Of a stretch of 14,559 bases of DNA, positions 348 to 14,559 are shown piece by piece. Position 1 is the first letter of the stretch. The number at the start of each line of letters is the position of its first letter. Origin of the DNA: Capitella teleta (Eukaryota); assembly GCA_000328365.1 (NCBI GenBank), contig KB294684.1:235904-250462 (forward strand), written 5' to 3'. A program made the translations under genes and the position numbers. Below the pieces are notes generated by a model. The model was not told where the DNA came from. It saw only the letters and a program-made list of their open reading frames with translations, and did not search any database.

Positions 348-948
348 TCATTGTGAGGGATGAATTCCACCCAGTAACAAGGCTTTCAAAGTTTTATATC
401 GAATGGTGTCGGCTTCTGGGGTCGCATTGCTTGCTTGTTTTTCGCTTTTTGTTTCTGTCAAATGCTGCTCAACATGAAAACTGCTGTCCAGTGAGAGTTC
501 TTTGTAAACAACATCGATTTTCCCCATCAAATTTCTCATACTCGTTTCATTCCTTATATGGCTGAGCATTTTTCTGCGATAATATGTCCTTTAAAGTGAA
601 GAATATTCAGAATGTCCTTACACAGGACCAGAATGTCTGCAATATGGCTGAGACCTTTGCCATCCCATGAGTTAAAATTATGAGAAGCAACGCGTGTGCC
701 ACGCAAAACCGATAATGCTGATGACTTTCAGCAGTTTGCTGGCCTGCACCATGTTGCTCGCTCCATCCATCATGGGCTGAGTACAACTTGGTCAGTTTGA
801 CAGTTTCAATGAACTGGCTCAATTCTGCAATGACATGCTTGACAACAGATTCGGCATTGTGTGCGTCTTTCGTACCGGTTGAATGCATGTTTTCAACAGT
901 TGGTTTGATTGCTAAAAAGAAGCGATGTTGCCTAGCTATCATGCACAA
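348..948 (-). mobile_element. Degenerate hAT-superfamily transposase remnant: two adjacent minus-strand ORFs (948-607 and 569-348) that are internally deleted or frameshifted.
   Basis: Seen in sequence, plus family-motif knowledge: ...LYSAHDGWSEQHG... resembles the hAT 'tDgWTS' catalytic-region motif. ...HYRFCVAHALLLII... resembles the hAT 'RCFAHTLNLVV' motif. The spacing between the two motifs (~20 aa) is far shorter than in intact hAT transposases (~90 aa). No C-terminal hAT dimerisation motif or TIRs were found, so this is a relic at best. Confidence 0.28.
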
Positions 949-1580: not shown

Positions 1581-2529
1581 TGAGTGTTTTATTGAACATT
1601 TGTTCTTGCAACTTTTTCATTGTCGTTACTTCTTGAGCAGGTCGTTACTTACGCGATGTGCTACGTACCATAATTCCACTTAACTTGTCTGTCCGATCAC
1701 TACGTAGGTAGTATGGTATTCGATCCTTGTGAAATTAAATGTTGGTAAAACTCTCCTTCTGTTATGTAATCACTAATTAAAATTTACAATGTACGATGCA
1801 TTCCCATTATTATGCACTGTAAGGCGTGCACAAAGATCACCCACCCCACGCATGCTAGTATGCAACGGGTCACCAAGTGCAGCAGCTTGCATGTTCACAA
1901 CGAATAGAGCGATGCCTTATTTCGGCATCCAGTGACGCCTATTCATGCATGGTTCGGGGTTGAAAGGTAAAAGAATCAAAATATCATAATATTTTTTTGG
2001 TGCACTCTTTTGATTGCGATAAAGCGGCATCAACGTTGACAAAATTGGAATATAAATGAAAGGGATATAGCAGCATGAAATGTTAAATTATCCATAACAA
2101 GTATTTATTTCTCTTATCTTTGGGCGGTTTTTACACGGCGACCTGTTTTGTAACACTTTCTCGTCTTTAGGAATACGTTTTAGCACGAAAGAAGTATTTA
2201 TAAACACGGCCTAATATGGCACAAGTCTCCAGAACTAGCAAGTGTGAGATCATAACGCACAAAATTACACGATGACATTATGATTTCTGAATTGAAGCAC
2301 TAAATGCTCTGTGCCGATAATTGTTGCTCGGTCTTTCTGAAACATTTTTCTTTACCCTAAACAGACATACATATATTTTATGCTTTATTATTGACACGGT
2401 GGTTGTCAATTCACATTCCAAGATGCAAGGCGTCTATGGCATCAAACCGTTTCATTTCGTTCATATTTTGGACTTGGTGCGTTGAATATTTAAATGTTTG
2501 TTTTGTATAATAATGTATTATAATTAAGC

Positions 2530-2544
2530 TATATATATATATAT
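2530..2544. repeat. (TA)7 dinucleotide microsatellite.
   Basis: Seen in sequence. Confidence 0.9.
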
Positions 2545-3369
2545 TATTATAGAATATAGGAAGTGACTAAAGTTACATACCTGTAATCCCAAGTTATAGA
2601 CCTCAAAATTAAGCCTAGGAAAGCATCTGTATTAATTGTATGCATAATAAAATTATAAAATTATAATATTATAACCGAGTCTCCACTCCAATTTTTGTGC
2701 GTGATCATTTGCACTAAAATTATAAGTAAAATCATTATAAGAAAACAAGACTACATTAACCCAATGCCAATGACATTTTTTTCAGTGAGAAGAATTTGAG
2801 AATTACTACTTTTCTATGCTTTTTTAGTGATACAAGGTGAATCATTTTGTTTGATATTCTTCATATGCATCCATTACCAATTAACTTAAGACTGCATATG
2901 CATGTGTATGTTGATAGTCTCTTAATTTGACTTAATAAGGAATTTCCAACATCAGATCTGTAAGTTTAACATTATGTCTAAGGATTACGGGTCTGTAATT
3001 TAACTTTATAATTTGCCTATAATTAAATTGGTAATTTCCTATTTGCCAATTGGTAGCTGACTAGCTAGCTCCCCAAGCTGCAGCATAGTTTATACACTAC
3101 ATCCTGGATTTGTTAACAGTTGTATTACATTTACATCAAATACATTCTGAGTAAAAAATAGAAGAATACTAACACAGATACTTAGATACAATAATCACAT
3201 GATATAGTACCTAATTATATTACAGCATCTACATCAGTATGCCTAATTTTTATCGACAAGTATACTTGAGAGAAAAAACAGAAATCAACATCAAAGAAAG
3301 TTTATAAAAAATTCTTTGTCGACACCTAAAAGCATTGAAATGAATGACAAACTGAATATATAGTATAAA

Positions 3370-3420
3370 CTTGAAATTTCGCGCCTTTCGTGGAAATCAG
3401 GCCGGCGTCGAATAAAAAAT
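3370..3420 (+). promoter_or_regulatory. Second small CpG-rich patch (ttcgcgcctttcgtggaaatcaggccggcgtcgaat), about 150-200 bp upstream of the first recognisable MVP exon. It is a candidate proximal promoter or TSS region.
   Basis: Seen in sequence only; the role is an inference. Confidence 0.2.
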
Positions 3421-3572
3421 TGAAAACGGATTATTTCTAAAAGAATCAACAATTATTGACCTGAGATAGACAAAATGCCATCTGAATATTCTCATATACT
3501 GAGATCGCCACTGACAAATAAACTACACTGCATGTCACAATCTATGCACTACTGGAGTTAGATTTTTTTCAG

Positions 3573-6500
3573 AACTCAAACGTAACTCGAGTCGAAGTGG
3601 GCCCTTTGACAATCGCTTTGAAAACAAATGAGTCAGTGGTTGCTGGCCCCCATCCCATGGTCATCGTGCCTCCGGGTCACTACTGTGTCATCCTCAACCC
3701 TTGCTGGTCAGTGGTCAAGCTCTTAGGTGATGCAATCATACTCATTTCAACTTCTTATAGTGATCACTCTTCAGAAGGAAAGCTGTGCAAATTGAAACAT
3801 GGTTTTCGTGATATTCGCTTCTTTAAGGTGAGAGCAGTTTGTGCCAATGTTATTGATTATATCTTGCTTCAATCAAAGGAACCTTTCCCTCTTTGTCCTG
3901 GTGAAATTCTAGATGGTGCTGAGTCATTTCTGGTATCTGGGGATCACAAAGCAGCTATTAAGGTGAGTGGTAGTCAGGAGATTATTTGTGTTGCAGTAAT
4001 GATATTTGCAGGCTCTGCCTGTGATTGGGTCGTCTTCTGCTTTGATTCTGGAAGCTGAGGTTGATCACAAAGACGGAGACGTTCAACGTCGCTCAGGAGA
4101 GCTGTGGCAAATCGAGGGACCATGCACATACAAGCCAACCTGCCACGCTGTGAGTCTTACCCTTGCGGCCAGGAGCAACAGATTCTAATGCTGAATGTTG
4201 CAGATCATGAAAGGAATGAAACAAGCGGAAATTCTTAAACCAGGTCAAGCGCTACGTCTGAGAGCCGAACAGGAATTGATTGACCGAAGCGATAAGTAAA
4301 GACATAATCCTCTCAATGTGAAGATGATTAGATTTCTGTTTTTTTTTTTTTAATCTTTAGAAGGCGTGTGACTGATGAGGAATGGTTGGTGACTACGGCC
4401 GGCGCTTATCTCACTGGGGTTTACGAGGCAGTTGTCGGCATCGAGGAGGCGTGGACGCTAACCCCCGATGTTGCGCTTCACCTCAGAGCTTCTGAACGTG
4501 TGACTGACTCAATAGGCGTCGATCGGTTCCCAGGGGAGGAGTGGATTGTCACAAGGGCTGACATGGAGATGCTCTATCCCACCATAGGAATTGTGAGACA
4601 TGCATACTGCAATGTGAACACTTTCTTCAATATATTTTGTCATAGGAAGTTGTTGCAAATGTGAAGAGGACAGTTCTGAGACGGAATCAATTCTGCGTTC
4701 TTCTCAATCCAGTAGACCAGAATGGACGACCTCAGTTGGGAAAGAGGAAGGTCATTGAGGGCATTGCAACGTTCTTCCTCCATCCCGGTTTGTGCGCAAT
4801 ACTTGTATTTATAAGTTGCATCATCCTTAAGTGTGCAGGTGAACATCTGGAGAACGGAATCCAAGTGGCGTATATTCTGACCAATGCTGAGGCTCTCGTT
4901 CTGCAGTGTCTGGAAGCATTCTCAAATGGTTGATTCAATATTGAAGCAAAGAATGATTCAACTGATTACATCTTTATTTTGAAACAGAGACCGAGAGGAG
5001 GTCTCCTGGTGAGCGGTGGATGATAAGAGGTCCAAGGCAGTACGTTCCGACAAAATTTATCAAGGTGGTCGAAAAGAGAGAAGAGATTTCATTGGCCGAC
5101 AACCAAGGAATCTACGTTAGAAACGTCAAGAGCGGCCTAGTCCGTTCTGTCATGGGACCACAAAGCTACATCCTGACCGAAAATGAAGTTTTCTTTGAGA
5201 AAGAACTGTCCAAGAATGTTGAGGAAATGTTGAAGTGAGTGGAATTAACTGACAATACTGTGTAATGATAATCTGATTGTGTCTTCAGGAGGGGAGGGGG
5301 TATGGGTGCCGAAGACATCCGAAAGATTGCCTACTTTGAACAGTGCATTGATCCGACCATTCTAAAAGGGAGAGACAAGACATGAGTTGTTACGTATCGT
5401 TGCCCCCACAACACTGCCTGCCAGGTTTATGATTTTGCGAAGAAGAAGGCGCGGGTGACCTTTGGACCTGACCTAGTTATTTTAGGTCCAAACGAAAATT
5501 TCAACGTTCTCAGTTTGAGTGGTAAGATTTTCGTAGAATTGTTAACATTTCATTGACTTTTCTTGGAAGCTGGAAAACCTAAGAAGACAAATGCATTGAT
5601 GAGTTTGGCACTGATGTTGGGCCCTGATTTCATCACGGATATCATCACCGTGGAAACATCTGATCACGCCAGACTTCAAATCAAATTGGCGTTCAATAAT
5701 CGTTTTGAGGTTTGCATGACTGCACTTCAATTTCCAGACTTTCAGCTAATGGTTTCTATTTATCTGCGTAGTATGATCCGAATGATGACAAGTCAGCAGC
5801 GAAGCTTTTCAATGTTCCGGATTTTATTGGATTCGCAGCCCAACAAGTTGGTTTGTGATCTCCACACTTTCTGTTTTTTATTGTTACCTAAAATTGCTCT
5901 TGCACAGCGAGTCACATCAGAGCTGCGGTAGCGAGGATTTCTTTTGATGAATTTCATCGCCATTCTTCAAAGATTATTCAAAGTGCTGTGTTTGGTCAAA
6001 AATCGGAATTGAAGTTCTCTGCTAACAACCTGGTTTGTGTCATGGGATCCTCTCATTGCATGATGCAAGTTTCTTTCTCTGAAGGTGATAAGCAACATTG
6101 ACATTCAGAGCATTGAACCGGTCGACCTAAAGATGCGAGACAGCCTCATGAAATCTGTTCAAATGGCAATTGAAATTTCCACCAAGTAAGAGTGTGTGGT
6201 GTCCCTTGGTTGTCATAGCAACTTCAATTTCAGCTCGATTGAAGCCACAGCGACTCACGAAGCGACTCGTTTGGCGCAAGTGGCGTACGGAAACTTGGAG
6301 AGACAGAAGATATCAAACGAAAAGGAGGCTGAGAAGGAGAGAGGCCATCTCCTGCAGCTGCAAGCGCTGTCTGCAGCTGTGGAATCAACGGGACAAGCGG
6401 TCGCTGAGGCTCAGGCAAAGGCGCAACGCATGAAAATTGAAGGCATCAGTCGTATTGAAGGTGACTTCAAACTTTCGAATCAGATCTTTTAATTTTTGTT

Positions 6501-6940
6501 TCAACACAGGAGCAAAGCTGAAGGCGAAGGCTGCTGATATTATGCACAGCGTGGAGTTGAATAACCTCTCTTTGGTAATTGCATCACTCACTTGATGCCC
6601 TAGCTCATTTCTTCCCAATCAGCTAAGGTCTTCGGAATTGGATTTTGAGAAAATGATGCACGAATTGAACTTTGAAAGAGCTCACCAGATGTCTGATATT
6701 GAGGTGAGATTTCATACAATAATCCCCATATTTACTTTATGCCTTTCTTGACAGGTCAGTAAATTTTCCGCCATGATCAAAGCAATTGGCGCTGATACAC
6801 TGAAGTCTATCGCAACCGCTGGTCCCGATATGCAGGCGAAACTGCTCTCATCGCTGGGCCTGGAATCTGTGTTGCTCACTGACGGAAATTCTCCCGTTAA
6901 TCTCTTCAATACCGCTAAAGGTCTTGTTTCAGAAAACTGA
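3573..6940 (+). CDS. MVP: Major vault protein (MVP) gene, 5'-partial. Exon 1 (expected ~20 aa ending ...IPPYHYIHVLD) was not located. At least 18 coding exons: 3573-3706, 3761-3827, 3879-3962, 4012-4149, 4204-4295, 4361-4592, 4646-4787, 4839-4928, 4988-5234, 5289-5521, 5570-5709, 5772-5850, 5908-6032, 6085-6185, 6234-6460, 6510-6574, 6623-6703, 6755-6940 (stop TGA 6938-6940 followed immediately by TAA).
   Basis: Seen in sequence: exon translations align collinearly with human and rat MVP across the MVP repeat domains, the shoulder/cap-helix region and the C-terminus (e.g. [27 protein letters not shown]; [12 protein letters not shown]; [19 protein letters not shown]; [16 protein letters not shown]; [28 protein letters not shown]; [29 protein letters not shown]; [13 protein letters not shown]; [19 protein letters not shown]; [27 protein letters not shown]; [33 protein letters not shown]; [37 protein letters not shown]). 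Every junction has a GT donor (gtgagt, gtaaga, gtttgt and similar) and a pyrimidine-rich AG acceptor, and the codon phases match across all 17 introns. The exon nucleotide total is 2463, a multiple of 3. Exact placement of the first two donors (3706 vs alternatives; 3962 vs 3934) is less certain. Confidence 0.88.
4339..4351 (+). repeat. T13 homopolymer forming the polypyrimidine tract of MVP intron 5 (acceptor tttag|A at 4360/4361).
   Basis: Seen in sequence. Confidence 0.85.
5383..5385 (+). other. MVP: In-frame TGA stop codon inside MVP exon 10 (5289-5521). It sits at the position of the conserved Arg in the human motif NKTRVVSYRVPHN; here the sequence reads [12 protein letters not shown].
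   Basis: Seen in sequence: the frame is fixed by the phase-2 donor of exon 9 (TTGAA|gtgagt at 5234) together with the acceptor tcttcag|G at 5288/5289, and downstream by the conserved [17 protein letters not shown] block. No GT...AG pair can remove the codon without deleting conserved residues. The context acaTGAg is consistent with CGA to TGA transition at a CpG. Confidence 0.8.
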
Positions 6941-7756: not shown

Positions 7757-7864
7757 TCAAGAGGTCGGAACGCCTCTCCTTCCTGGGTTATTGGTGGACG
7801 TCAAACGGGCGATCTTTTCTTGGCGTTGTTCCAGCTCTCTCCAACGACTCTCCTCCATCATATG
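7757..7864 (-). other. Candidate alternative 3' terminal coding exon (35 codons plus TGA) for the minus-strand gene, or a separate small ORF. Translation: HMMEESRWRELEQRQEKIARLTSTNNPGRRGVPTS*.
   Basis: Seen in sequence: a locally GC-richer block in AT-rich DNA. A strong acceptor cttttacaaatcaacag|CAT lies at 7865-7867 on the reverse complement and is phase-0 compatible with the phase-0 donor AAG|gtatgt at 8470. The charged, coiled-coil-like composition resembles the upstream exons. It competes with the nearer acceptor at 8387/8386. Confidence 0.22.
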
Positions 7865-7935
7865 CTGTTGATTTGTAAAAGTTAAATTTGTGTGAATAAT
7901 GTTTTGATATTCTGTTAATTACAAATGATTGGTCC

Positions 7936-7941
7936 TTTATT
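7936..7941 (-). terminator. AATAAA polyadenylation signal on the minus strand (reverse complement of tttatt), about 385 nt downstream of the TAA at 8324 of the minus-strand gene.
   Basis: Seen in sequence. The function is inferred from its position in the convergent 3' intergenic region. Confidence 0.3.
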
Positions 7942-8323
7942 TTAAAGCCCAGATTTCAAGTGAAAAGTCATCCATTTTTGAGAGAAACGTGAGAAGAGAT
8001 TTTGTCGTACTAAAAATAGTTGCATACTGATCAAAGTCACAACATGTAGTAAGGTAAAAATGCCTCCATTTCCCCTAAAAAAACCTGAGGAGGCCAATTA
8101 AAGAGGAGGGAATGTTACACAAGAATGATTTGAAATAGGAAGAAAAATCATTTACTAACTATAACTGGAAGAAGTTTCCATCAAATGTAAGGTAAAAACT
8201 GTGCATGAAGCAAAGATGTTCAAAGTGAAAATTTCCTGTCTTAAAGAAGTAATTGGATTTCAAATGGAATTTAAAAATACCAATCAGGTATTAGAAGGAA
8301 ATGATAATTGAAAAGTGCATAAA

Positions 8324-11287
8324 TTAACAAATTAACGATCCCTTAATTATCTTCACCTCTTTAGCAAGACGACCAGCTTCAGTCGGCTGTAACAAGTTAT
8401 TATCAATATGTTAGTTGGGTGCAGAAACCATTTATATTTCACACATCAACCTCCTGAAACTTTACATACCTTAGCTGCATTGATTTGCTTCAATTTCTGA
8501 GATGTCTTTTTGTTTGGTTGAATCTTCAGTCGCGTCTGCTGTGCCTTTCTCTCCTGGCGTTTCTCCTCTAGCTTCCGCTGCAAATCAATTAACTTGGGAT
8601 CATCCACAACGGCCTTTGCGTTGTGGCCTTTCTTCCGTTCTTCCAGCCGAATAGCAGCGGCTTTGCTCTGCTCCGTGCGATGTCTGTTGATCGTCTCCAA
8701 CGTTTCCATCAGAAGTTGTTCTTTTTCTTGTTTCGTGTTCAAAATGTCGTCTCGTTTGTTTTCCTCTTCAGCTTCTGAATTCATTCTCAGTAAGGATAAT
8801 CGTTCCTTCAACTAGAAAATTATACAAAGTTGTACCTTAAGATACCTCCATCAAGTGATAAATGTACCTCCACTATAGACATCTCTCCCAGGAAGCCATA
8901 ACCAGCATTCTCTGCCAAATCAACAGTCTTGAATTTCGTCTTAGGGACTGCTTGGGCCGCTCGTATTTGACGAATGAGAAGCATTTTCTGTTGCATTTCA
9001 GCTTCAGCCTGCAAACATATTCAAATGAACACTGTTTCACACTGAAAACATGCGTGATTTACCTCCTCTAGAGCCTGTTTCATCAGCTCACGACTTTCTT
9101 CTGTGACTGCCTGAACTAGAAAGAGATCAGAGTAAAAATGAATCCTCTATCAGCTGAATTACACTCACCAATCTTTGCTTTGTATACTTGTAGTTTTTTC
9201 TTGGCTTCCTTTGCATTCTCGTGAGTATCCAACACTTTTTCAACCAATTCCCTGCAGAACAACTTAAGACACTTCTGTTGCTCCTGCTATTTTCTCTCAC
9301 CTTGTCTCAATCTCTTCCTGCATTTTCCTCTCCATATATGCTTGCATCAAACCAGCTGCCTGTTGGGGAACCATAACCGATCCATATCACACTCCACTCA
9401 TGGTCCAATCCTACCTCTTCACGCATGCTGCGGGCTTTCTCTTGATTTTCCTGTATCAAATTCTGACGAGCGATGATTGCTTCCTCGTGGCTCAGCTTCC
9501 CCTCCAAGCGTCTCCGCTCAACGTCCGCAAACTGAGCTTCTAAATCTTGCTTGCGCATTTTACGCTGCCATTCGAAGAAATCACTGGCATCTTTTGCCCC
9601 TGCTTCTAGTCTCTCCAGCCTTTAATAAAAAATATAGAAATGGAAATATTTATTTCTAAAATTTTCACTTTTTGAGTTCTTCCTGTTCACGCTGACGATA
9701 CAACTTTCCTTCTCTTAGAATCGAAGTCGCGTTGAGTTTGATTGGAATATTCTCATCCTGATGAGCAACAAGGCATAAAAATAAATATTCCTGTAAAATA
9801 TAATAAACAGTGTAAATACCAGCAAAGCCTTAGGGAATGGATGTGACTTGTGGCGCTCAAAATCCAGCTTCTGTTCTTCTTCCACTAAAATATCTCTCAT
9901 ACGCCTCTGAGTTTTCTCAGACTTTTCTGGATTAGCGCAAGCAAATCTCTGCCTAGAGGCCTCCATCAGATGCTCCTACAGAAAACATCAAGTGAATTGC
10001 TTTAATTTATCATGAGACTTACTTCAGCTCTTCGTCGATTCTTCTCTCGAATGGCAGCCATGATGTTCTCTTCTTCCGGTTTCTCATAAGTTGTCTTTGG
10101 TGTCGGTTTGAATGGCTTCAATTTGGGAATCTTTATATTTAAAGAAAAACAAATCAATCTTCGCTGAAATTCAGAGGGTATGTTAATCTCACAGGCATTG
10201 GCATGGGAACACTGCGAGGCCGTGGCCTTGTGAGATTAAACGGCTTCACCTCTGAAAAAAGCGCATTCAATCTCATTATGAAGCATGTCATTAATTTGAT
10301 CACACCTGTGCTTGAAACTGTCTCTTTCTTGAGTTTCAATTTATTTGTGATTTCCTTCTGCATCTGCTGAAGAAGATCTTCCAACTCAGGCAGCCATCTG
10401 TGTTGCAATATATCGATGACCACATGGAAGCATGATCAACTTCTTACCCAAGAAGGGAGGAGAGCAAGGTGGTCTGCACAAAAGAAGTGTCGTAGATTTT
10501 CACCCAAGAATCTTTCATCCAAGTTCGGATTGATTTATCATTGAAGAAGAAATTCAAGAACTGAGGAAAGGGGTGAATTTGAAAATAGCGTCTATAAAAT
10601 GAATAAAGTTGAAGTTGACAAACCTTGTGCATTTTATTCAAGTCCACAGCTCTTACAAATTTCCTAAAATGAGGCATTCCTAACTCGTCCAATCGAAAGA
10701 TGGCCAGGTATACAAAAACTTAACGGATAGAAATTAGTGTTCATTAAGCACAATTATTATAAAATAATCAAAGCATTGAAGCACTGAAATTAAACTAATA
10801 AAATTCCTTATCTTTGAAATGCTGCATAAAATAACAAAATTTCATTGTGAAAGCGGATAATATTGTAATCCTAAAAATCTTATCAATTAATTAATCTCAC
10901 CCTTGAAGGATGCACAAGAATGATTATTCAAGAGAAAGTTTTATCAGTGAAATACAAAAGATTGATAAGCCTACCTCTGTACAGATTCTCTTCAGAACGA
11001 AGAACATTTTTCCCATCACGATTATAAAAAGCTTCTGTGACAACTGATATAACACTGTGGTACCTAACACAGCCAGAGAATACCTCCGTTATAAAGGTAT
11101 GGTCATCATCAGGCAAATTCTGAAATCAGAAATAAATTAGATATAAGAGATAAATGCAAAAATTGATATTAGCCTTTTGTTGTAGCAAGAATTCATTGAT
11201 GTGTTCTTCCAGGGACATCAAATCAACTTTGAAAGAGTTGAGCACTTCAACACAGGCAGTGATTAGTTCTCTGTGATTTTGCGCCAT
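8324..11287 (-). CDS. 15-exon gene encoding a ~667-aa protein with an LZTFL1-like N-terminal domain fused to a Pro-rich linker and an extended E/K/R-rich coiled coil. Exons on the - strand, given on + coordinates: 11287-11174, 11119-10975, 10718-10448 (which may contain an optional in-frame 63-nt intron at 10623-10561), 10397-10306, 10251-10193, 10130-10023, 9975-9820, 9790-9669, 9619-9415, 9359-9301, 9251-9169, 9106-9063, 9008-8868, 8811-8470, 8386-8324 (stop TAA at 8326-8324).
   Basis: Seen in sequence: a Kozak-like aagATGg start (reverse complement of 11285-11287) gives MAQNHRELITACVEVLNSFKVDLMSLEEHINEF. Exon 2 gives NLPDDDHTFITEVFSGCVRYHSVISVVTEAFYNRDGKNVL. Exon 3 gives YLAIFRLDELGMPHFRKFVRAVDL. 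Exon 4 gives WLPELEDLLQQMQKEITNKLKLKKE. From my memory of human LZTFL1, these resemble (NEHHQNEVINYMRFA...KTVDSCFQDLKE...EDTFTIDEVSEVLNGLQAVVHSEVESELINTAYTNVLLL...WYLKLQTDISELENRELLEQVAEF...ILDVTKPKLAPLNEGGTAELLNKEILRLQEEN). Downstream exons encode RPRPRSVPMPMP / IPKLKPFKPTPKTTYEKPEEENIMAAIREKNRRRAE, then long charged heptad-like sequence (…DFFEWQRKMRKQDLEAQFADVERRRLEGKLSHEEAIIARQNLIQENQEKARSMREE…, AEAEMQQKMLLIRQIRAAQAVPKTKFK…, …LEERKKGHNAKAVVDDPKLIDLQRKLEEKRQERKAQQTRLK…). All junctions have GT (one GC) donors and AG acceptors. The phases are mutually consistent and the exon total is 2004 nt, which is 668 codons. The family assignment is tentative; the gene structure is well supported. Confidence 0.68.
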
Positions 11288-11488
11288 CTTGATCCATGAG
11301 AGAGAACCTGTAACATGAATAATAATAAGAATGAATGAAACAATTGTCCCACTTTCCCTATTTTGGTTGGATTTGAGTGATGGGGCATTAGGTATCGATG
11401 TGCTGTTGGTGGATGAAGTGCATTACGTCATTTAAACCACTTGCACTGATAATTGTTTTGATTATTTCCTTCAATGTAGTTTTTGTAG

Positions 11489-11503
11489 TTTTTTTTTTTT
11501 TTT
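11489..11503. repeat. T15 homopolymer (A15 on the minus strand) embedded in a TGTAGTT x3 micro-repeat. It lies about 200 bp upstream of the minus-strand gene's start codon.
   Basis: Seen in sequence. Confidence 0.85.
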
Positions 11504-12030
11504 GTAGTTCACATTTTATTTTTCTATTTTTTTCTTCAGTTTTATGATGTGAATAAATTAAATATACATTATGCACACTATCAAATAATAACTAATTGAT
11601 AGCACGCATATAATAGCAATAATATCAACTCCTTAGCTGGCAGTAATATAAGGCTAAGTAACTATTATTTACTATACAGTAGATATGTTTGTCATGTCTG
11701 ATGATCAGATGATGATATGGCATGATCTTATTACTTATAATTTATTTGTAAATTACTGTATAGTATATCAATTATATCAGCATTTGTCATTCTGAGCACT
11801 TTATATAGTATATAAACATGGCACAACTGTGGCGATAACGGTATATATTATCATTTTGTATGATATGGTCTGACGAGATGGAAGTAGTAGAGTAGAGGAA
11901 GTAGAGCAATGGAGTCAGTTACTCAGTATTTGAGAATATTATTTAAGACTAAATTAGCAGATTAGACTATATCAGCAGTCTATTATTAGCCATTGGTCTG
12001 TATCTGTGTATATCAAGTATACCTGATATA

Positions 12031-12064
12031 CAGAGTGGGCTAAAAGTAGTCTATCTACTCCATG
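12031..12064 (+). repeat. Left terminal inverted repeat of the MITE.
   Basis: Seen in sequence: it pairs with the reverse complement of 12668-12707. Confidence 0.65.
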
Positions 12065-12667
12065 TTATCGATTACAGTGCTTTTCAATGGCATTGCACTT
12101 TTCCAAGAAAGTGTTACAAAACAGGTCGCAGCATAAAACTATGCTAAATAAGAGAAATAAATACTTGATATGGGACGTTAGTCTAACATGTCATGCTGCT
12201 ATTCCTATAATGTTTATTATAATTTCATCGACGTTCAATTAATGGAAAGCACCCAACTTTCGGCAAAATTTTCCCTTTTGGCGGCAAAGAGAGCCCCGGA
12301 CCATGGATAGGGTTCATTGCACTATTCTTTTGTTTGAGAATGTTGTTGTTTTGATTATAACACTAATGTTTACTTCTTAAAATCAAAACAGAGCAGAGAG
12401 TTTGTATTGAAGCGCCATGCAACAAATAATATTCCATAATGCTTGTTCAGGGGTTCATCCAATTTAATTCTCTTCACGAACACACAATACTCGCATTTAA
12501 ATGTTCCTACCTCATTAAATTTTGACTTTTTATTTGATATCTTGGTATGAATAGATGCAGAATAAGTTAGTCAATCCAGACTAGGTGAATATTTTTGGGA
12601 ATAATTGGTCCTTTTTTTTCCAATGAGAATTTTAGTTTTTAACATCATAACAACATAATCATTTTAG

Positions 12668-12707
12668 CATGGAGTAGATAGACTTAGACTACTTTTGGCC
12701 CACTCTG
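12668..12707 (-). repeat. Right terminal inverted repeat of the MITE, carrying a 6-bp internal duplication.
   Basis: Seen in sequence: its reverse complement matches 12031-12064. Confidence 0.65.
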
Positions 12708-12778
12708 TATAGTATACATGTAATGTGTGAAGTATATAAGTTTTAACTATATAAGTCTATCAAGTATGACTTATTAAG

Positions 12779-12805
12779 TGTCAGTCAGTGACTCAGTCAG
12801 TGAGT
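12779..12805. repeat. Short tandem repeat GTCAGTCAGTGA(C) x2 (gtcagtcagtgactcagtcagtgag), flanked by TATTAGTATTAGTATA at ~12867-12882.
   Basis: Seen in sequence. Confidence 0.7.
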
Positions 12806-14441
12806 GGGACATCTCAGCATCACCTCTCACCCCTCTGTCAGTTTGTGAGTGTTAGTCTGTCAGTATTACTATTAGTATTAGTATAACAGCCAGACACTCG
12901 ACTTCAAAAAAGGCATTTGACTTCAAAATGTCTACCGATTATTGAAATATACCATGCTAATTAATACCTGCTTAATTACCTACGATAAACCTGCGTCTGA
13001 AATTCACAATTAACGAGTTTATGGGTGGTTTAACAAGGAATTCCTCAATTTGTTCGCCATTTGTTTACTGTAGTTACTGAAAAGTCACGGAGCCAAATTT
13101 CTGAAATATACGTACTCTGTAAGTATATATTACTTAAATTTTTTGTAATAATTTATGAATTTATAATAACAAAATATCCTTTAAAATTATTTTTAATTAA
13201 TTAAATTGTCTATAAATGGCCTTACAAGCCTAAATAAATTGAATCGAAACTTCCCAGAAAAGCGACCTCTTAGCCGAATCTTCGGCAATGATCGGAGGTG
13301 CTCGGTATTTTCCGCCAAGCCCGGCGCTTTGTGTATTGTGAAGTGTTTACATGAAGGTTGTCAAACGTCACTGGATAACATATCGCTAAAGCGTATTTTA
13401 CTAATTGAATCTGTGAACATGACAGACAACGACAACTCTCAGGTATTGTTGCATTACCATGATAAAATCATTTGACATCATTTTCCATTACCTGTTTACG
13501 TTGATATTTGCGATAAAGCCCAGAAAATTCGCTCCGAAGAATCGAATCGCGAGGGATTCTCGCTTTATGCTGACTCGCCACTTTTTCAATCTGCGCGCTT
13601 CGTGATCTATTTTTAGCCTAATTAGGTTATAACTTGTTACGATTGACAATATGCTACCATTATGCAATGAGTACGAATGCATTAAAAATGACATGTAAAT
13701 TCTTGATGCAGGGTGTTCTATTTGAATGAATTTAAAACATGATTATAAAATCGGTAATTATAAAAAATAAATTCAAAATTAAATTGAGAGCGACGGCTTA
13801 TTCGAATTGGTTTGCCCTATATTAATTAATGTATTCACTTTTTCATTTCGGCATTTAATGGAAAATATTCAGACCGTATGTTTAGTGCACCAATTTCATG
13901 TAGTACCGGTATATATATTTTTAATAGCATTTTATAATGTGTGATCGCGAATATCGACCTACTCCATATTCTTATTCTATATGGCAGCCATTCAGGATAT
14001 ATCATTGTAACATGCTGGATTATATTACATAATCCTTGGGATGTGTTATGTACAATAGTATATGTTGTTTGGACTAAAGGCTTTATAGTGTGATTATACA
14101 TACCGGTATATAAAATGTTGTAATATTGTGTTAATGAATTGAAACACCATGATAATGTGTGCATTTCGACTCTACGAGTGCTGTTCGGTTGACTTTATGG
14201 ATTACTTCAAGGATTAACTCAATTGAATTAATTGATTGTCTAAATTGGCATTGTGATTCTCTTGGATTTGAGCAACCGTTTGGAATTATCAATATGATAT
14301 CAAGATTTGGTTCATTCCGGAAGTTGAAGATGAGATGGTCTCTGGGAATGACTGATTATCAATCTCTCAACAGCGCAAATTGCCTGGTGAATATATAATA
14401 ACTCATTTCATGTAAAATGAATTGTGTGTTTTACCTGTTCG

Positions 14442-14461
14442 AAAAAAAAAAAAAAAAAAAA
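14442..14461 (+). repeat. A20 homopolymer followed by purine-rich GGAAGAAAAGAGG. It may be the poly(A) tail of a retroposed insertion.
   Basis: Seen in sequence. I found no flanking target-site duplication. Confidence 0.6.
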
Positions 14462-14559
14462 GGAAGAAAAGAGGCTTATGAATTGCTTTTAACAATTTAT
14501 TTCTGATTAAAATCTAATTGCATTTTGTTATCGAATACTCAGTTGTTGATGTTCATTGT

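Follow-up and report, generated by a model that had tools for sequence, protein, structure and literature searches.

Introduction

Mice survive in good health when MVP is knocked out, and the gene is missing from fungi, insects and nematodes (PMC7916137; PMC3762200). Loss of MVP function is evidently tolerated, and the gene has been lost repeatedly among eukaryotes; in the lineages without it, it is gone or unrecognisable. Where the gene is retained, as in the spiralians Owenia fusiformis, Liolophura sinensis and Lingula anatina and in human and rat, the latter two with solved vault structures, its product shows one canonical domain order.

Two further groups of genes are close in kind to an MVP gene that carries a stop codon inside its coding region. 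CpG-transition nonsense alleles are classic in CpG-methylated genomes and place TGA at a conserved arginine, with TG where CpG is expected. Selenoprotein and readthrough genes carry an in-frame UGA inside a conserved coding region.

The window described here, the whole 14,559-nt stretch of Capitella teleta contig KB294684.1 that was analysed, contains a complete MVP locus of 19 coding exons interrupted by one in-frame TGA. The reading favoured below, with a probability of roughly 0.6, is that this is the single recognisable MVP gene of C. teleta and that it carries one real, very recent germline nonsense mutation.

Structure of the MVP locus

The rebuilt gene model has a coding sequence of 2517 nt (838 codons plus the stop) in 19 exons, running on the + strand from the ATG at 2423 to the TGA at 6938-6940. 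The exon chain was built from all GT...AG intervals that keep the frame open between blocks of MVP similarity; a human MVP sequence served only as a guide for locating exons, and the authoritative alignment is that made by phmmer against PDB chains. The features of the locus and its neighbour are:

2423..2476, + strand: MVP exon 1, encoding MQGVYGIKPFHFVHILDL; begins at the first ATG of the open reading frame, with the donor GTGCGT at 2477
2477..3572, + strand: MVP intron 1, 1096 nt, GT-AG, GC 29%; the sole long intron
3573..3706, + strand: MVP exon 2, from the gene model and the human MVP alignment
3761..3827, + strand: MVP exon 3, from the gene model
3879..3962, + strand: MVP exon 4, with the donor GTGAGT at 3963 preferred over 3933
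4012..4149, + strand: MVP exon 5, from the gene model
4204..4295, + strand: MVP exon 6, from the gene model
4361..4592, + strand: MVP exon 7, from the gene model
4646..4787, + strand: MVP exon 8, from the gene model
4839..4928, + strand: MVP exon 9, from the gene model
4988..5234, + strand: MVP exon 10, from the gene model
5289..5521, + strand: MVP exon 11, 233 nt, carrying the premature stop
5383..5385, + strand: premature TGA, codon 459 of 838, in exon 11, opposite human MVP Arg456
5570..5709, + strand: MVP exon 12, from the gene model
5772..5850, + strand: MVP exon 13, from the gene model
5908..6032, + strand: MVP exon 14, from the gene model
6085..6185, + strand: MVP exon 15, from the gene model
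6234..6460, + strand: MVP exon 16, from the gene model
6510..6574, + strand: MVP exon 17, from the gene model
6623..6703, + strand: MVP exon 18, from the gene model
6755..6940, + strand: MVP exon 19, ending on the TGA at 6938-6940, with TAA next
7757-11287, minus strand: CFAP99 (cilia- and flagella-associated protein 99), a complete gene lying tail-to-tail with MVP

All 18 introns have GT-AG boundaries and there is no frameshift; apart from intron 1, the introns are short (48-65 nt for the other 17). A preliminary description of this DNA had already noted that the exons keep frame and splicing, and that the natural stop is followed by TAA with no gap, and both observations hold. Its exon numbering has to be revised, as it had counted 18 exons, regarded exon 1 as missing and placed the premature stop in exon 10. 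Exon 1 is present at 2423-2476 and matches the human N-terminus, its residues 6-18 pairing with human MVP residues 9-21 in the phmmer alignment to PDB chains; once it is counted, the coding exons number 19 and the stop falls in exon 11.

The end of exon 4 (3933-3962) encodes about 10 residues that are extra relative to human MVP. An in-frame donor at 3933, weaker than the GTGAGT at 3963, would drop these residues; the donor at 3963 was chosen because a Lingula MVP isoform (P0304) has a comparable insertion.

The best database match of CFAP99 is the C. teleta protein CAPTEDRAFT_191698, and its exons are 100% identical to that protein (tblastn against the window, residues 1-657), which identifies the window as nuclear DNA of C. 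teleta. The gene is of normal length, has no in-frame stop and terminates on the TGA at 7757-7759, 816 nt from the MVP stop. It had been described as ending on TAA, but the open reading frame at 8446-8811 that seems to form its 3' end is an exon read through into its intron. No Pfam match was found in the open reading frames of the flanks (1-2422 and 11288-14559). Several open reading frames of 70-113 aa, likewise without a Pfam match, lie at 348-948 (minus strand) and 13206-14398, and these may be chance reading frames, untranslated exons or degraded repeats. The search for tRNA genes in the window found none, and one short tandem repeat is present at 11480-11522.

Identity and conservation of MVP

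Residues 6-835 of the model align with residues 9-849 of human MVP (phmmer against PDB chains, E = 5.6e-233). Pfam matches above the cut-offs comprise Vault (4 stretches), Vault_2, Vault_4, Vault_3 (460-521) and MVP_shoulder (522-633), in the canonical order for MVP, and the C-terminal cap-helix and cap-ring region is covered by the human alignment. Judged by every sequence criterion other than an open frame, the gene is an MVP orthologue. The exception is the one in-frame TGA at codon 459, which breaks the uninterrupted reading frame that a functional MVP gene would have.

Conservation was scored over an alignment of 118 full-length MVPs. All 115 near-invariant columns (at least 98% invariant) are kept in Capitella, as are 203 of the 215 columns that are at least 90% invariant, a score below which 15 of the 118 other sequences fall. 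The 12 missed columns are mostly conservative exchanges (L/I, L/V, D/E, V/I, E/Q), 7 of them before the stop and 5 after it. Identity between Capitella MVP and the MVPs of other spiralians and of deuterostomes is 54-57%, against 59-63% for those MVPs among one another. This lag of about 5 points is approximately the same as that of the intact neighbour CFAP99, which argues that there has been no acceleration of rate specific to MVP. On these comparisons the gene is otherwise intact and highly constrained.

Given that the invariant columns survive and that MVP lags about as far as CFAP99, any inactivation of MVP would be very recent, probably on a within-species time scale. Neutral drift beyond roughly 1% would be expected to have added indels, further stops or hits at invariant residues.

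The premature stop codon

The TGA at codon 459 is the only interruption of the MVP reading frame; the gene has no other premature stop and no frameshift. There is no alignment gap near it in the phmmer alignment, where the TGA faces the Arg of human NKT-R-VVSYRVPHN (R456, as counted on that alignment). Among the 118 full-length MVPs this column holds R in 92, K in 16, H in 3, Q in 3, and C, L, S and N in 1 each, and among 118 shorter homologues it holds R in 79 and K in 29. The column is thus Arg or Lys in 108 of the 118 full-length homologues, bearing out the earlier report of an in-frame TGA at a conserved arginine. The stop lies one residue ahead of Vault_3 and upstream of the shoulder domain, and the C-terminal region downstream of it also aligns to human MVP.

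Searches for other copies of MVP

One possible explanation for the stop is that an MVP paralog or pseudogene has long been decaying at this locus while an intact copy elsewhere in the genome supplies the function. The premature stop itself is the sole observation in its favour. The supposed absence of exon 1, on which the preliminary description had based its idea of a decaying paralog, is contradicted by the model, in which exon 1 is present, all splice sites are canonical and exactly one disabling change is found, and the preserved near-invariant columns and the rate shared with CFAP99 likewise speak against long decay.

The protein searches point the same way. In a collection of 5.8 billion proteins, which does contain the C. 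teleta CFAP99 model, no named Capitella MVP protein was present among the best 120 matches of either MVP search. The nearest match of these protein searches, at 67% identity (P0030), is an environmental transcript fragment on an intron-less 1-kb JGI contig, derives from another species and has Lys at the stop site; full-length proteins of Liolophura and Owenia follow at 57%. The closest relatives found are therefore at most 67% identical, with K or R at the stop site.

P0304, with 63% identity over half of the query and a UniParc id as its only label, was considered as a possible second Capitella copy and rejected, the C-terminal stretch compared by eye being identical to Lingula anatina MVP; it is taken to be a Lingula isoform or an older model of that gene. 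An old paralog backed by an intact copy is judged very improbable. Metagenome contigs were also scanned for independent sequence of the locus: exact matching to the 28-base flank of the TGA (N at the T) gave 0 matches, and a protein-guided scan returned one relative, 59% identical, and nothing from Capitella.

The public gene set also appears to have no model for the MVP locus. A missing MVP model is what a stop in the public assembly that blocks the gene model would predict, and the single premature stop is the likely cause.

Possible decoding or bypass of the in-frame UGA

Another explanation is that the UGA is real and does not end translation, being read through in a programmed way, used for selenocysteine, converted to UGG by A-to-I editing, or read with a different meaning in this organism. 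Near-cognate decoding can place Arg, Trp or Cys at a UGA, and rare readthrough of this kind would sometimes give back the wild-type residue. Conservation downstream of the stop is also as good as that upstream, which would be expected of a decoded codon, but it fits a very young mutation equally well.

The other evidence points away from decoding. No SECIS element was found by Rfam at E <= 10 over the whole window on both strands, including the 816 nt between the two stops, and the output at this threshold consisted of four weak, unrelated matches. The homologues have Arg or Lys at the site and Cys in 1 of 118 MVPs, so that a selenocysteine-type column is absent. The base after the premature stop is G, and UGA-G does not belong to the contexts known to be leaky, of which UGA-C and UGA-CUAG are examples. 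Folding of the 100 nt that begin at the stop gives -17.4 kcal/mol, less stable than the mean of -22.2 for shuffled sequences (z = +1.47), and 194 of 200 shuffles equal or exceed its stability.

Bypass of the stop by splicing fares no better. Skipping of exon 11 would remove 233 nt and shift the frame. Splicing out the TGA within exon 11 was also rejected, as any GT...AG interval that does so also deletes the conserved VVTYRCPHN block; GT is absent from roughly 38 nt upstream of the stop.

Stop-codon usage had been thought uninformative in this DNA. Both MVP and CFAP99 end on TGA, within a few residues of the ends of their homologues, which, for two genes only, is weakly informative against reassignment of UGA. 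A count of in-frame TGA codons in other conserved genes had been proposed, and CFAP99, the only other gene counted, has none. Nothing suggests an unusual genetic code, and the finding has no bearing on the genetic code.

Decoding of the UGA in any of these forms is accordingly judged extremely unlikely. The same holds for the specific case in which the sequenced stock is fixed for a genuine TGA and full-length MVP is made by efficient UGA readthrough inserting Arg or Trp, to which hardly any weight is given; if true, it would mean that a conserved structural gene of an animal depends for its function on recoding at an internal codon. The preliminary ranking, which placed a sequencing error, a nonsense allele or a recent pseudogene above recoding, stands, and these tests add evidence against recoding; its argument from exon 1 for a decaying paralog was wrong.

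Origin of the stop codon

If the base was miscalled, or the consensus of the draft assembly is wrong at this point, the true codon would be a sense codon, for example CGA, and the gene fully functional. Sanger shotgun reads at about 8-fold coverage underlie the published C. teleta genome (PMC4085046), and a low-coverage Sanger consensus does contain wrong bases here and there. The gene is, moreover, otherwise flawless, which is the appearance expected of a working gene in which a single base is wrong.

The type of change counts against such an error. Stop-creating substitutions make up 303 of the 7542 possible substitutions (4.0%) in the MVP coding sequence, and TGA at a CGA or AGA Arg codon accounts for 18 of these 303 (5.9%) when all changes are taken as equally likely. 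With a 10-fold CpG transition bias the same share rises to 26-29%, and mutation is favoured over random error by a likelihood ratio of about 4-5. A single CpG transition turns CGA into TGA, and Arg is the majority residue at the column; the change bears the signature of a biological CpG transition. The CpG would be internal to the codon (CGA to TGA) and would not, as first described, involve the flanking base. The ancestral codon may have been AGA instead of CGA, in which case the CpG argument would fall away; the gene uses CGA 5 times and AGA 12 times.

The base composition of the window is in keeping with a mutation of this kind. The observed/expected ratio of CpG is 0.36 in the pooled MVP introns, a strong depletion, 0.59 in intron 1 and 0.61 across CFAP99, and it is 1.01 in the upstream flank (1-2422). 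This contrast is consistent with methylated gene bodies beside an unmethylated upstream or promoter region. Gene bodies of C. teleta carry CpG methylation in a mosaic pattern (PMC11292947), and a CpG bias at MVP is plausible because the introns of the gene are CpG-depleted and the species methylates gene bodies. Taken together, a wrong base in the assembly is the main rival reading, possible but less likely than a real mutation.

Under the favoured reading of a real and recent germline mutation, the most likely change would be CGA (Arg) to TGA through deamination of a methylated CpG in the gene body. We infer from the sequence that the base is real and that the ancestral codon was CGA, and the fate of the transcript and its product is predicted on that footing. 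With the stop in exon 11 of 19, the mRNA would be expected to undergo nonsense-mediated decay. Any protein made from it would be cut off after residue 458 and, by the MVP domain order (PMC7916137), would be without the last body repeat, the shoulder, the cap-helix and the cap-ring. The allele would be null because such a truncated fragment could not build the vault shell. It may be segregating or fixed in the sequenced culture, and would accordingly represent either a loss-of-function polymorphism or a newborn unitary pseudogene.

Implications for C. teleta

For annotation, the result is a complete MVP locus of 19 exons in C. teleta, apparently without a gene model in the protein collection. 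The further meaning depends on the base. If the stop is real and homozygous in culture, it would constitute a natural vault knockout in a tractable spiralian, and the widely used laboratory stock of C. teleta may be a natural MVP-null, vault-less spiralian model. Such a stock would be of modest use for the long-open question of vault function, and MVP would have been caught at the very first step of the loss known in insects, nematodes and fungi. Should the base instead be wrong in the consensus, the finding would only mark it for correction.

Comparison with known systems

The MVPs of Owenia fusiformis, Liolophura sinensis and Lingula anatina, and those of human and rat, share their domain order with the Capitella protein, whose length of 838 aa and both termini also match. 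The best spiralian matches are 57% identical to it; they differ from the Capitella gene in that their frame is open, with Arg or Lys at the site of codon 459.

An in-frame UGA inside a conserved coding region is the sole feature that Capitella MVP has in common with selenoprotein and readthrough genes, and it has neither a SECIS element nor a Cys/Sec column, a leaky context or a downstream structure. Of the features looked for as marks of a selenoprotein, programmed readthrough, codon reassignment or an old pseudogene, none was found at the MVP locus.

With CpG-transition nonsense alleles Capitella MVP shares TGA at a conserved Arg and TG where a CpG would lie, together with CpG-depleted introns and gene-body methylation in the species. 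It differs from that class in that the ancestral codon is reconstructed, and the alternative change, AGA to TGA, would be a transversion. The event would fall within the familiar class of CpG-transition nonsense alleles and newborn unitary pseudogenes, or would be a base error.

Fungi, insects, nematodes and knockout mice indicate that loss of MVP is tolerated, but the naturally MVP-less lineages are in a different state from C. teleta. The Capitella case would be at most a first step of MVP loss, or only a polymorphism, in a gene that is complete apart from one base.
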